From a virus (taxonomy: Duplodnaviria > Heunggongvirae > Uroviricota > Caudoviricetes > Straboviridae): 4,041 nucleotides of DNA. Shown piece by piece: positions 1 through 4,041 of this stretch (position 1 is its first letter; the number at the start of each line of letters is the position of its first letter). Where the stretch lies: the IMG/VR virus record IMGVR_UViG_2636415500_000006. One strand, written 5' to 3'. The position numbers and the translations under genes are program-made. The notes beneath the pieces are model-generated. The model saw only the letters and a program-made list of their open reading frames with translations. It searched no databases and was not told the DNA's origin.

Positions 1-518
<518 letters not shown>

Positions 519-525
519 TCAGGGA

Positions 526-541
526 CTTGTTCGCACCTTCC
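526..541. repeat. IS5 16-bp terminal inverted repeat (cttgttcgcaccttcc; complement ggaaggtgcgaacaag)
   Basis: Exact 16-mer at 526-541 matches the IS5 end sequence as I recall it. It lies immediately upstream (on the minus strand) of the transposase start, as expected for an IS end. The partner repeat is outside the window. Confidence 0.85.
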
Positions 542-731
542 CAAGGGGAAAACGCACGACGTGCTGACCGGAAGTGATGACGGTCGCCACAGCAACACGT
601 CTCTGGCGTGGGGAGCTGGCGTGCAGTTTAACCCGACCGAATCCGTGGCCATTGATATTGCTTATGAAGGCCCCGGCAGTGGCGACTGGCGCACTGACGG
701 TTTCATCGTGGGTGTCGGTTATAAGTTCTGA
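542..731 (+). pseudogene. lomR: 3' fragment of a lom-family (Ail/Lom/OmpX-type) outer-membrane beta-barrel gene, truncated by IS5; last 62 codons plus stop
   Basis: In-frame translation from 543 reads KGKTHDVLTGSDDGRHSNTSLAWGAGVQFNPTESVAIDIAYEGPGSGDWRTDGFIVGVGYKF then tga at 729-731. This matches the C-terminus of lambda Lom as I recall it, including a C-terminal aromatic residue typical of outer-membrane beta-barrels. The signal peptide and N-terminal strands are absent; IS5 sequence lies directly upstream. Confidence 0.88.
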
Positions 732-757
732 TTAGCCAGGTAACACAGTGTTATGAC

Positions 758-784
758 AGCCCGCCGGTTCAGGCGGGCTTTTTT
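758..784 (+). terminator. Rho-independent terminator between the lom fragment and stf
   Basis: Perfect 7-bp GC-rich stem gcccgcc (759-765) / ggcgggc (772-778), 6-nt loop ggttca, followed by a run of six T (779-784). It sits 27 nt after the lom stop codon. Confidence 0.7.
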
Positions 785-785
785 G

Positions 786-793
786 TGGGGTGA
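786..793 (+). promoter_or_regulatory. Putative ribosome-binding site for the tail fibre gene
   Basis: Purine-rich ggggtga ends 2 nt before the ATG at 796, which is rather close spacing. The call is weak and positional only. Confidence 0.4.
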
Positions 794-795
794 AT

Positions 796-3700
796 ATGGC
801 AGTAAAGATTTCAGGTGTACTGAAAGACGGCACAGGAAAACCGGTACAGAACTGCACAATCCAGCTGAAAGCAAAACGTAACAGCACCACGGTGGTGGTG
901 AACACGCTGGCCTCAGAAAATCCGGATGAAGCCGGGCGTTACAGCATGGACGTTGAGTACGGTCAGTACAGCGTTATTCTGTTGGTGGAAGGATTCCCGC
1001 CGTCACATGCCGGGACCATTACCGTGTATGAAGATTCTCAACCCGGTACGCTGAATGATTTTCTCGGTGCCATGACGGAGGATGATGCCCGTCCGGAGGC
1101 ACTGCGCCGTTTTGAACTGATGGTGGAAGAGGTGGCGCGTAACGCGTCCGCGGTGGCACAGAACACGGCAGCCGCGAAGAAGTCAGCCAGTGATGCCAGC
1201 ACATCAGCCCGTGAGGCGGCAACCCATGCGGCTGATGCTGCGGACTCAGCACGCGCAGCCAGCACGTCAGCCGGACAGGCCGCGTCGTCGGCTCAGTCAG
1301 CGTCTTCCAGCGCAGGAACGGCATCAACAAAGGCCACTGAAGCATCAAAAAGTGCTGCCGCTGCAGAGTCCTCAAAAAGCGCGGCGGCCACCAGTGCCGG
1401 TGCGGCGAAAACGTCAGAAACGAATGCTTCAGCGTCACTACAATCAGCAGCCACATCTGCATCCACCGCGACCACGAAGGCATCAGAAGCTGCGACCTCG
1501 GCCCGGGATGCGGCGGCCTCAAAAGAAGCGGCAAAATCATCAGAAACGAACGCATCATCAAGCGCCAGTAGTGCAGCTTCCTCGGCAACGGCGGCAGGAA
1601 ATTCCGCGAAGGCGGCAAAAACGTCCGAGACGAACGCCAGGTCTTCTGAAACGGCAGCGGGACAGAGCGCCTCGGCTGCGGCAGGCTCAAAAACAGCGGC
1701 TGCGTCGTCTGCCAGTGCAGCGTCAACAAGTGCCGGGCAGGCCTCAGCCAGTGCCACCGCCGCCGGAAAATCGGCAGAAAGCGCCGCATCGTCTGCTTCA
1801 ACAGCCACAACGAAGGCTGGCGAAGCCACTGAACAGGCCAGCGCAGCAGCGAGGTCTGCTTCCGCAGCGAAGACATCCGAAACGAACGCGAAAGCGTCGG
1901 AAACAAGCGCAGAATCCTCAAAAACGGCTGCCGCATCGTCAGCCAGTTCGGCGGCGTCATCGGCATCATCGGCGTCTGCTTCAAAAGATGAGGCGACCAG
2001 ACAAGCGTCAGCAGCGAAGAGCAGCGCCACGACGGCATCCACGAAGGCGACAGAGGCTGCTGGCAGTGCGACGGCGGCAGCTCAGAGCAAAAGTACGGCG
2101 GAATCCGCGGCAACGCGCGCCGAGACAGCAGCTAAACGGGCAGAGGATATTGCATCCGCCGTGGCGCTTGAGGATGCAAGTACGACGAAAAAGGGGATAG
2201 TACAGCTCAGCAGTGCGACCAACAGTACGTCTGAAACGCTGGCGGCAACGCCAAAGGCAGTAAAATCAGCCTATGACAATGCAGAGAAACGTCTGCAGAA
2301 AGACCAGAACGGCGCTGATATACCCGATAAGGGATGCTTCCTGAACAACATTAACGCGGTCAGTAAAACAGACTTTGCTGATAAGCGTGGTATGCGTTAT
2401 GTGCGGGTTAACGCTCCTGCAGGTGCAACATCTGGAAAATATTACCCTGTTGTTGTTATGCGTTCTGCTGGCTCAGTAAGCGAACTGGCATCAAGAGTCA
2501 TTATCACCACGGCAACGCGAACCGCAGGCGATCCGATGAATAACTGCGAGTTTAACGGATTTGTTATGCCTGGTGGCTGGACTGACAGGGGGCGTTATGC
2601 TTATGGCATGTTCTGGCAATATCAAAACAATGAACGAGCCATTCACTCAATAATGATGAGTAATAAGGGCGATGATTTGCGCTCTGTGTTCTATGTTGAT
2701 GGCGCTGCTTTCCCTGTTTTTGCGTTTATTGAAGATGGCCTGTCAATATCCGCACCTGGTGCTGATCTCGTTGTTAATGATACGACCTATAAGTTTGGGG
2801 CAACAAATCCGGCGACTGAATGTATCGCGGCGGACGTTATCCTTGATTTTAAGAGTGGGCGTGGTTTTTATGAGTCTCATTCGTTAATCGTTAACGATAA
2901 CTTGTCGTGCAAAAAACTTTTTGCCACAGACGAAATTGTAGCGCGTGGTGGTAATCAGATTCGAATGATAGGTGGGGAGTATGGTGCATTATGGCGTAAT
3001 GATGGCGCTAAAACTTACCTGCTGCTTACCAATCAAGGTGATGTTTATGGTGGCTGGAATACATTAAGACCGTTTGCTATTGATAACGCAACCGGCGAAC
3101 TGGTTATTGGAACCAAACTGTCCGCAAGTCTGAACGGTAATGCATTAACAGCAACAAAGCTGCAAACGCCAAGACGGGTTTCTGGTGTTGAGTTTGATGG
3201 TTCCAAAGATATTACTTTAACCGCCGCGCATGTGGCTGCTTTTGCCAGAAGGGCAACGGATACATATGCCGATGCGGATGGTGGCGTTCCATGGAATGCC
3301 GAATCTGGCGCTTACAATGTCACCCGCTCTGGCGACAGCTATATTCTGGTTAACTTCTATACCGGAGTCGGAAGTTGCCGGACCCTGCAGATGAAGGCGC
3401 ATTACAGAAATGGTGGTCTGTTCTACCGTTCTTCAAGAGACGGTTATGGTTTTGAGGAAGACTGGGCAGAAGTTTATACCTCGAAAAATCTTCCACCAGA
3501 AAGCTACCCAGTCGGCGCACCAATCCCGTGGCCATCAGATACCGTTCCGTCTGGTTATGCCCTGATGCAGGGGCAGGCTTTTGACAAATCTGCTTACCCG
3601 AAACTTGCAGCCGCTTATCCGTCAGGCGTGATCCCTGATATGCGTGGCTGGACGATTAAGGGCAAACCTGCCAGTGGTCGGGCCGTATTGTCTCAGGAAC

Positions 3701-4041
3701 AGGACGGCATTAAATCGCATACCCACAGCGCCAGCGCATCCAGTACAGATTTGGGGACGAAAACCACATCGTCGTTTGATTACGGCACTAAATCCACGAA
3801 TAACACCGGGGCACATACACACAGTGTGAGCGGCTCTACAAACTCGGCTGGAGCACACACACACTCACTAGCCAACGTGAACACGGCTAGTGCTAACTCC
3901 GGTGCTGGTAGTGCATCAACAAGATTGTCTGTTGTGCATAATCAAAACTATGCAACATCATCTGCTGGCGCACATACCCACTCACTGTCCGGCACTGCTG
4001 CAAGCGCAGGTGCACACGCGCATACTGTCGGTATTGGTGCT
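796..4041 (+). CDS. stfR: Side tail fibre protein (lambda Stf homolog, Rac StfR-type); first 1082 codons, 3' end beyond the window
   Basis: ATG at 796 opens a frame that runs to the window end with no stop (3246 nt = 1082 codons). No complete frame-1 ORF is in the track, consistent with this. The N-terminus [26 protein letters not shown]... and the C-terminal stretch GAPIPWPSD...[32 protein letters not shown] match lambda Stf as I recall it. An Ala/Ser-rich stalk and His-x-His repeats are typical of tail fibres. Confidence 0.93.
1141..2190 (+). repeat. 42-nt (14-codon) periodic Ala/Ser/Thr-rich repeat tract within the tail fibre gene (fibre shaft)
   Basis: The motif K-(T/S)-S-E-T-N-A begins at 1408, 1534, 1618 and 1870, with spacings of 126, 84 and 252 nt, all multiples of 42. 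T-T-K-A occurs at 1471-1482 and 1807-1818 (K codons 336 nt apart, 8 x 42). Chunking the protein in 14-residue blocks from [14 protein letters not shown] keeps these motifs in register. Confidence 0.75.

Follow-up and report, generated by a model that had tools for sequence, protein, structure and literature searches.

The stfR locus of the Rac prophage

The window, by which we mean the whole stretch of 4,041 nucleotides analysed here (IMG/VR record IMGVR_UViG_2636415500_000006), corresponds to the lomR'-stfR part of Rac, a defective prophage of E. coli K-12. An open reading frame starts at nt 796 (MAVKISGV...) and remains open through the end of the window, and its translation is 100% identical, over all 1082 codons, to StfR of the Rac prophage of E. 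coli K-12 MG1655 (WP_000279097.1). The DNA identity of the whole window to the K-12 records annotated as stfR was 98.8%; nt 525-4041 are identical to the K-12 record, and the sole difference lies in the IS5 part at nt 18-524, with none in the stfR gene. The gene has the same neighbours as in K-12, namely a lom gene split by IS5 upstream, with a lom remnant at nt 543-731 of the window, and tfaR and pinR downstream; at the K-12 locus, which is identical, the tfaR gene begins at the stop codon of stfR. Rac is a prophage with known defects, including a truncated tape-measure gene in addition to the split lom, and stfR is a gene already annotated in K-12, with tail-fibre mosaicism of an ordinary and well-known kind. 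The features used in this analysis are listed below, all on the + strand, with residue numbers of StfR.

796..4041, +, stfR open reading frame, the first 1082 of 1120 codons, running off the window end (translation; identity to K-12 StfR)
796..1197, +, N-terminal tail-attachment domain, aa 1-134 (PF08400 phage_tail_N; 91% identical to lambda)
1198..2181, +, Ala/Ser-rich fibrous shaft, aa 135-462 (global alignment)
1717-2031, +, part of the shaft without a lambda counterpart, aa 308-412 (global alignment)
2182..2265, +, conserved 28-residue joint repeat KGIVQLSS...TPKAVK, aa 463-490 (comparison with lambda and P2_2H4)
2266..2352, +, 29-residue linker of P2/Mu type, aa 491-519 (alignment to Mu S/S' and P2_2H4)
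2353..2901, +, cassette A, predicted compact beta-sandwich fibre domain, uncatalogued, aa ~520-702
2902..3135, +, cassette B, predicted triple beta-helix and beta-prism of T4 gp34 P4 / Mu S type, aa ~703-780 (Pfam, phmmer)
3136..3231, +, conserved linker motif ATKLQT...FDGS, aa 781-812, an internal recombination joint (allele comparison)
3232..3495, +, cassette C, Mu S'-type domain that stands before the tip in Mu and P2-like fibres, aa 813-900 (phmmer, Pfam)
3514..3714, +, collar region of lambda / T4 gp37 type, aa 907-973 (PF07484; 94% identical to lambda)
3715..4041, +, His-box (GAHTHS) needle repeats around the variable tip segment, cut by the window end (PF03335, alignment)

Both ends of the product carry the domains of a lambda-type side fibre. 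The Pfam scan found PF08400 over its full length (1-134/134) with an E value of 9.6e-72 and 239.7 bits against a cut-off of 26.6, and, towards the other end, PF07484 (Collar) at aa 907-954 with E 1.5e-11 and PF03335 (Phage_fiber) with E 3.8e-8. The collar and the His-box (HxH) repeats are of the T4 gp37 type and 88-94% identical to lambda, for which a T4 gp37-like collar, needle and tip, binding to OmpC and the role of Tfa have been described (PMC7291167). Since the variable tip segment at aa 1024-1058 is 34% identical to lambda, the receptor of StfR presumably need not be OmpC, the receptor of lambda.

Comparison with lambda Stf and the outer joints

Ur-lambda Stf (774 aa), which corresponds to orf-401 plus orf-314 of lambda PaPa, was rebuilt for the comparison by restoring the single C that is missing in PaPa. 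The global alignment placed StfR aa 1-490 against lambda 1-385, with an extra 105 residues of Ala/Ser-rich shaft in StfR at aa 308-412, and StfR aa 906-1082 against lambda 532-727, while the 415 residues at aa 491-905 stood opposite the 146 residues of lambda 386-531. The identity to lambda in the flanks was 87% for aa 1-307, 86% for aa 413-490 and 93% for aa 906-992. The lambda-like stretch ends with ...ATPKAVK at nt 2265, and the sequence is lambda-like again from GAPIPWP, the start of the collar, at nt 3514; these two points are the left and right recombination joints. BLASTP showed no similarity of the 415-residue block to the lambda 146-residue segment (best E 4.3) or to lambda Stf as a whole (best E 2.5). 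At the DNA level, homology to lambda stopped at nt 2264 and resumed at nt 3514 by blastn, the same two junctions were seen in multiple DNA alignments, and the window and lambda part directly after the AAA codon of K490.

The original prediction, that this is a mosaic tail fibre in which a central block of other origin lies between lambda-Stf-like ends, is borne out by global alignment, BLASTP and blastn alike, and all the peptides it quoted are present in the reading frame, although it did not name the gene as stfR of Rac. The pairwise alignment it proposed mapped the breakpoints to lambda 385/386 and 531/532; its left boundary at nt 2266 proved exact, and on the right the return to lambda-like sequence at about nt 3514 was correct, while the module end given as nt 3504 fell three codons early. 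Because lambda 386-531 is absent from StfR, the block is a replacement relative to lambda and not, as had been supposed, an insertion.

The two proteins share the N-terminal domain, the Ala/Ser-rich shaft, the joint repeat, the collar and the His-box needle at 86-93% identity, and the lambda gene order lom, stf, tfa is matched by stfR, which lies after J/lom and directly before tfa as a lambda-type stf does. Since aa 491-905 are unlike lambda 386-531, the two fibres are not collinear over their whole length, and StfR is a Stf by its ends and context and not by its middle. Besides the exchanged block, the StfR shaft is 105 residues longer, a difference absent from the original prediction and for which the TRF program detected no DNA tandem repeat at nt 1000-4041, the needle has one SFDYGTK repeat fewer, and the tip segment differs. 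The GC content falls from about 0.60 in the shaft to about 0.45 in the block; this drop was set aside as a sign of foreign origin because the high GC of the shaft follows from its Ala codons. Functional engineered lambda STF chimeras have been joined at lambda residues 393 and 528 (PMC11338833), and the natural joints at 385/386 and 531/532 are within a few residues of these engineered junctions.

Composition and distribution of the 415-residue block

The joint repeat that closes the lambda-like part is 96% identical to lambda and 86% identical to the fibre of the P2-like phage P2_2H4, which carries four copies of it. It has a Gly near a strand start and a Thr-Pro before a helix; Granell et al. 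(PMC5537660) list such features among those conserved in the alpha/beta fibrous repeats of gp34 and gp12 of T4, a resemblance at the level of features. The linker that follows aligns to residues 143-172 of Mu S and S' and is 86% identical to P2_2H4, whose DNA continues to align with that of the window on both sides of the left junction. The second linker motif, at aa 781-812, is the place where alleles change identity class, and it is duplicated in 9g gp70 and in P0115.

Cassette B was identified by PF21446 (Gp34_trimer) with an E value of 3e-27, scoring 95.8 bits in the whole protein and 99.9 bits in the block alone against a cut-off of 27. By phmmer, block residues 216-288 aligned to Mu S 268-336 with E 1.5e-16 and to T4 gp34 1036-1107 with E 7e-12 (6e-12 to 2e-11 overall for the gp34 chains); the PDB entries matched by the block were Mu S' 8ju3, Mu S 5yvq and T4 gp34 5nxf, 5nxh and 9x3r. 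Residues 1014-1047 and 1105-1128 of gp34 form triple beta-helices with the P4 domain between them (PMC5537660), and the aligned part of the gp34 C-terminal region (5nxf, 5nxh) corresponds to triple beta-helix plus P4 beta-prism. The common element is, however, limited to about 75-100 residues and StfR is not an orthologue of gp34, and its locus, unlike the T4 system, is without the hinge partner gp35.

Cassette C matched residues 322-409 of 488 in the Mu S/S' structure 8ju3 (domain E 7e-21, whole sequence 2.9e-28), at about 50% identity to Mu S'. PF12604 (gp37_C) scored 24.8 bits with the block alone, in comparison to a cut-off of 22.5, and was not listed in the whole-protein scan. In Mu S' and in P2_2H4 the homologue of cassette C is followed by a short tip (about 95 aa in P2_2H4), whereas in StfR the cassette is internal, at aa 813-900 of 1120, and is followed by the collar, the needle and a tip of another type.

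Cassette A has neither a Pfam family nor a close solved structure. The domain, of about 170 residues, was confidently modelled, and its predicted fold class is a beta-sandwich. No significant structural or sequence match to known lectin or CBM families was found. A PDB profile search with cassette A matched camelid nanobodies alone (E 0.007-0.35), which we judged to be chance. A full library scan gave an alignment of 49 sequences, and the relatives of cassette A form about 130 clusters at 50% identity, occurring in fibres of lambdoid, 9g-like, P2-, P1-, rV5- and T4-like phages of Escherichia, Aeromonas and Vibrio. In protein searches, the Aeromonas and rV5-like forms of cassette A, combined in a profile, gave one match, and the P2-like form gave 30 short E. 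coli fragments alone; the matches listed in these searches were at most about 1.7 times the query length, and long fibre proteins are absent from them for that reason. Cassette A, with its 130 or so clusters in several phage groups, may represent a tail-fibre domain family present in neither Pfam nor the PDB.

Comparison of the alleles segment by segment showed that A, B and C vary independently, with A as the most variable part of the block (56-63% identity where C has 86-100%). The central region, taken as a single module in the original prediction, consists of three cassettes, each exchanged on its own and connected to the next through a conserved linker motif. The search for the same block on other N-termini, which had been suggested as a check, was successful. 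Six isolated lambdoid phages (Chlobot, 2H10, mEp332, PhiR34_1, Kati and ev099) have the whole block at about 99% identity, the virulent 9g-like siphoviruses 9g, JenK1 and HdK1 have it at 54-65%, and parts of it were found in the P2-like phages 9W and P2_2H4 (A and C) and in one P1 variant (A and B). The fibre of 9g (gp70, Nonagvirus; also in JenK1 and HdK1) has cassettes A, B and C at 63%, 72% and 86% identity with the same collar and needle, on an N-terminal domain that is 35% identical to that of StfR; upstream of the Rac-type block it has also retained about 80 residues from the start of the lambda-type segment, both linker motifs are duplicated, and its GenBank note already reads 'similar to lambdoid Rac prophage'. 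The P2_2H4/9W fibre shares the joint repeat, the linker, cassette A (56%) and cassette C (45% to P2_2H4) with StfR, and P2_2H4 is without cassette B. The P2-like and Mu fibres differ from StfR at both ends: their myovirus N-terminus binds the baseplate, and a short tip of Mu S' type takes the place of the collar, His-box needle and tip. A group of proteins of 620-723 aa with a characteristic 12-residue start was not counted as the block in new contexts because P0076 (662 aa) is, by genomic context, a truncated stf remnant beside a Nu1 homologue in Qin-like defective prophages. Among 5426 complete E. coli genomes, the block was present over at least 80% of its length in 1307 and the lambda-type segment in 584. 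The lambda 386-531 segment is itself common to fibres of P2-like (79%), P1 (72%) and Mu-like (78%) phages.

Origin and possible role of the block

The explanation that we consider best, with a probability of roughly 0.78, is that StfR is a side fibre built of exchangeable blocks, in which a 415-residue distal-shaft block of myovirus type replaces the 146-residue cassette of lambda. StfR would be a trimeric side tail fibre, attached to the tail by its lambda-like N-terminal domain, which leads into the Ala/Ser-rich shaft, the joint repeat closing this part. The next 415 residues would form a distal-shaft block like those in the fibres of P2-, P1- and Mu-like myoviruses, in the order Mu/P2-type linker, beta-sandwich knob A, B, ATKLQT...FDGS linker and C. 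From GAPIPWP onward, the collar, needle and variable tip are of the lambda and T4 gp37 type, with folding of the tip probably aided by the chaperone encoded by tfaR downstream. The sequence patterns suggest that the mosaic arose by homologous recombination at short linker motifs common to fibres of otherwise unrelated phages. In comparison to lambda, the block would add about 270 residues per chain, and its main role is most likely to make the distal shaft longer and give it its form, with the choice of receptor left to the C-terminal variable tip. An in-line shaft geometry of the block would be expected from its homologues; an AF2 monomer model of the block, based on a 14-sequence alignment, had a pLDDT of 39 and was unusable. 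Of the two roles put forward in the original prediction, receptor or glycan recognition and spacer, a shaft or spacer role is favoured for B and C.

It has also to be considered that host recognition involves a second element, either the block as a whole or at least cassette A, as a mid-fibre beta-sandwich binding a surface glycan such as O-antigen, LPS core or capsule, so that the fibre would have two binding sites. The variability of cassette A among alleles would fit host contact as well, and we regard this reading as unlikely, though worth keeping in mind. If foreign DNA had simply been inserted into a stf gene otherwise collinear with lambda, this would agree with the high identity of both flanks and with the block being longer than the lambda segment at this place; however, the absence of the lambda segment makes the event a replacement, and 9g combines parts of both in a third arrangement. 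Fibres of P2, P1 and Mu-like phages contain relatives of the lambda segment, and more E. coli genomes carry the Rac-type block than the lambda type; lambda is therefore not the ground state, and an insertion is very improbable. The least credible reading is that the block reflects decay, the cryptic element having been left with a scrambled or non-functional fusion, as might be thought from the defects of Rac, including those of the adjoining lom and of the tape-measure gene, and from the truncated stf remnants with the same block in Qin-like prophages. The reading frame is nevertheless intact over 1120 codons with tfaR directly downstream, and the isolated phage Chlobot carries the same fibre at about 93% overall and 99.8% in the block, which is likewise 99% identical in five further isolated lambdoid phages.

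As a discovery, the exchangeable-block structure of StfR carries little weight, as the gene is annotated, its Pfam domains have been recorded, similarity to Rac is mentioned in the annotation of 9g, and exchange of fibre segments is known, having been described for lambda, P2, P1, Mu and T4 since 1989-1994 (Montag 1989; Haggard-Ljungquist 1992; Sandmeier 1992 and 1994; as cited in PMC3945230). Its value is a practical one, in that the outer joints together with the inner ATKLQT...FDGS motif define three further exchangeable cassettes usable in fibre engineering, among them cassette A as a modelled domain still without a family entry. If cassette A were a mid-fibre glycan-binding site, which we consider doubtful, StfR-type fibres would possess two recognition elements, and the frequent exchange of A alleles would adjust host range without involving the tip.

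Joints with lambda Stf and identity of the gene

Global alignment of the window's StfR protein (W) with Ur-lambda Stf (774 residues), which we rebuilt by putting the missing C back in AAAGCCC(C)ACTGG of the frameshifted lambda PaPa stf, paired W 1-490 with lambda 1-385 and W 906-1082 with lambda 532-727, leaving W 491-905 (the block, 415 residues) opposite lambda 386-531 (the lambda-type segment, 146 residues). The flank identities to lambda were 87%, 86% and 93%. The block showed no similarity to lambda Stf, the best E values being 4.3 against the lambda-type segment and 2.5 against the rest of the protein. At the DNA level, lambda homology stops at nt 2264 and restarts at nt 3514, and the DNA alignments place the left switch directly after ...CCAAAGGCAGTAAAA (ATPKAVK) and the right switch at GGCGCACCAATCCCGTGGCC (GAPIPWP). 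The original prediction of a ~410-codon module inserted at 2266-3504 between lambda-Stf-like ends was correct in its coordinates and quoted peptides, but the event is a replacement rather than an insertion, because lambda's own 146 residues are missing from the window protein.

A second length difference, missed by that prediction, lies at window 1717-2031 (aa 308-412), where the window protein has 105 more residues of Ala/Ser-rich shaft than lambda; TRF found no DNA tandem repeat in nt 1000-4041. Long alternative-frame ORFs overlie this shaft at window 1019-2200 (two on the minus strand, of 364 and 249 aa, and one of 336 aa in another plus frame), probably arising from biased GCN/TCN codon composition; in lambda the corresponding region has 'orf206b' annotated on its minus strand.

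In a megablast search of complete E. coli genomes, the 4041 bases matched K-12 strains full-length at 98.8-98.9%, over an annotation reading IS5-like transposase, Ail/Lom remnant and 'stfR: prophage tail fiber N-terminal domain-containing protein'. The ORF from nt 796 is 100% identical to K-12 StfR across its 1082 codons in the window, window nt 525-4041 is identical to the MG1655 record, and the Rac prophage order in that record is a truncated tape-measure gene, IS5-split lom, stfR (1120 codons), tfaR and pinR; the finding thus concerns a known, annotated K-12 Rac prophage gene. All 55 mismatches to the MG1655 record fall at window 18-524, within the IS5-family element splitting lom, and the best match to window 1-800 among the complete E. 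coli genomes of the collection was 94.6%, so this IS5 copy differs from that in deposited K-12 assemblies. Many of these mismatches fall at every third base.

Features in and beside stfR (Pfam, except the first)
Window 543-731: C-terminal remnant (…DIAYEGPGSGDWRTDGFIVGVGYKF) of the gene for the outer membrane protein Lom/Ail, truncated by the inserted IS5; a pseudogene in the K-12 annotation
aa 1-134: phage_tail_N, outside the block
aa 663-762: Gp34_trimer (PF21446)
aa 827-886: gp37_C (PF12604), with the block scanned alone
aa 907-954: Collar, outside the block
Outside the block: Phage_fiber His-box repeat

Cassettes of the block and their distribution

Per-segment identities of related proteins to the window protein show that the block consists of three cassettes, A (aa ~520-702), B (aa ~703-780) and C (aa 813-900), and not one. 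Its different origin was rightly predicted; its description as a single module was not upheld.

Cassette identities to the window protein (P-numbers, StfR-like database alleles)
P0086: A 58%, B 56%, C 100%
P0115: A 57%, B absent, C 100%
P0076: A 99%, B 100%, C 26%
P0030: A 99%, B 88%, C 100%
9g gp70 (virulent siphovirus): A 63%, B 72%, C 86%
P2_2H4 fibre (P2-like phage): A 56%, B absent, C 45%

Identity switches among the alleles at two sites, one linker (aa 491-519; 66-93% identical across those alleles) and the motif GNA-TATKLQT-R-I-GV-FDGS-DITLT (aa 781-812; 56-81%). Short MALEDAS... proteins in the protein database resembled the block on a new N-terminus; P0076, the member examined in its genomic context, proved to be a truncated stf remnant in Qin-like prophages.

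Among PDB sequences, block residues 216-288 aligned with T4 gp34 1036-1107 and Mu S 268-336, residues 323-410 with Mu S' (8ju3) 322-409 (domain E 7e-21), and the first 30 residues with Mu S/S' 143-172. In the gp34 crystal structure, 1014-1047 and 1105-1128 form a triple beta-helix with the P4 beta-prism between them (PMC5537660), which by analogy argues for cassette B being a shaft element. The left joint coincides exactly with the last residue of a widely conserved 28-residue joint repeat (aa 463-490); compared by feature rather than by alignment, these 28 residues carry two features reported as conserved in the gp34 and gp12 alpha/beta fibrous repeat, namely a Gly near the strand start and Thr-Pro before the helix (PMC5537660).

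In a check proposed with the original prediction, tblastn found the block or parts of it on other N-termini and backbones, in lambdoid, 9g-like, P2-like and P1 phages. The whole block occurs at 98-99.8% in lambdoid records (Chlobot, 2H10, mEp332, PhiR34_1, Kati, ev099 and the unannotated 31.5-kb 204576 record, which bears the name of its host strain), at ~70% in Turner and PhiR30_1, and, among virulent siphoviruses, at 54-65% in 9g, JenK1 and HdK1. Chlobot encodes a complete Stf, flanked by lom and tfa. In P2-like 9W and P2_2H4, A and C follow a P2 gpH N-terminus and four joint-repeat copies and precede a short Mu S'-like tip; a P1 variant has A and B beside its invertase with other domains between them, and other large phages carry B and C, or C alone. 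Cassette A is also present in T4-like fibre subunits of Aeromonas phages (~30-37%) and, at ~28-31%, in Escherichia phages with large genomes of ~137-138 kb (HMD-6, slur12 and others), taken as rV5-like from that size. In the 9g gp70 protein, the opening ~80 residues of the lambda-type segment (TVMDVANTKAPSNSPVLTGVPTAPT...NFATTMTTL) precede the Rac-type block, and its GenBank note reads 'similar to lambdoid Rac prophage'. It also duplicates both linker motifs (L004, 1447-5082; two copies each, the second motif reading GNA-TATKLQTA-KI-G-SFDG), which looks like a footprint of repeated recombination at the motifs.

Relatives of lambda 386-531 were found at ~79% in P2-like phages (P88, pro147, R18C), 78% in a Mu-like Yersinia phage, ~72% in P1 and relatives, and ~53% in Klebsiella P2-like phages. 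Of 5426 complete E. coli genomes, 1307 carry the Rac-type block, counted at >=80% of its length, and 584 carry the lambda-type segment. These are alternative cassettes occupying one fibre position, and lambda does not represent the ground state. Both coexist in one phage, since Punavirus P1 MH422554 (L006 2452-4932; record 30835-31233) carries lambda-type 386-531 in one tail fibre gene region and Rac-type A and B next to a DNA invertase.

Cassette A, origin and possible function

Block residues ~30-210, corresponding to cassette A, matched no Pfam family and, even by profile search, no PDB entry; they fall within several PHROGs 'tail fiber protein' families. When 1.84 billion representative proteins were scanned in full, cassette A turned up in 134 clusters, always internal to long proteins and at varying positions. 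The AF2 model, built on an alignment of 48 cluster sequences, was confident (pLDDT 87.6, pTM 0.80), with strand elements at ~aa 533-693, and predicts a compact, mostly beta domain folding on its own. Foldseek against the PDB gave at best E 0.03 and TM 0.31; the fold also occurs in predicted viral structures of tail fibres from JenK1, Vibrio phage phi 3, Aeromonas pAh6-C, Aeromonas phiAS4 (gp37) and Escherichia phage navn. On this evidence cassette A is a real fibre domain of the beta-sandwich class, one not yet catalogued. Glycan binding by A is conceivable given its allelic variation, beta-sandwich fold and conserved polar motifs, but structure comparison gives it no positive support.

By its ends and context StfR belongs to the lambda Stf family, failing only collinearity in the middle. 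With T4 gp34 and Mu S/S' it shares single domains and not orthology. Engineered lambda STF chimeras that are functional carry P2 H behind lambda 1-393 or a K5 fibre behind lambda 1-528 (PMC11338833), and the window joints lie within a few residues of these junctions, which supports reading them as permissive domain boundaries. Lambda-Rac recombination across stf-tfa is possible in the laboratory (PMC3945230). The replacement may have arisen when conserved linkers underwent homologous recombination. It is long established that tail fibres of lambda, P2, P1, Mu and T4 are mosaics of one another (refs 71-74 cited in PMC3945230); the present finding is already known, with the uncatalogued cassette A as its sole loose end.

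Lambda Stf and T4 gp37 recognise their receptors through a C-terminal collar-needle-tip folded with Tfa (PMC7291167). StfR keeps this part; the variable segment between its His boxes differs. This segment (window 3865-3969, aa 1024-1058), by analogy with T4 gp37 the likely receptor-contacting tip, is 31-43% identical to lambda, 9g, P0086, P0115, P0076 and P0030 (lambda, 34%), so StfR probably differs from lambda in lacking OmpC specificity. One copy of lambda's SFDYGTKTTG repeat is missing in StfR at aa ~993. The lambda-like N-terminus would attach the fibre to the tail; B and C have shaft homologues, and we infer that the block forms a longer distal shaft, with ~270 more residues per chain and A as a knob, which would alter the reach and geometry of the fibre and leave its primary specificity unchanged.
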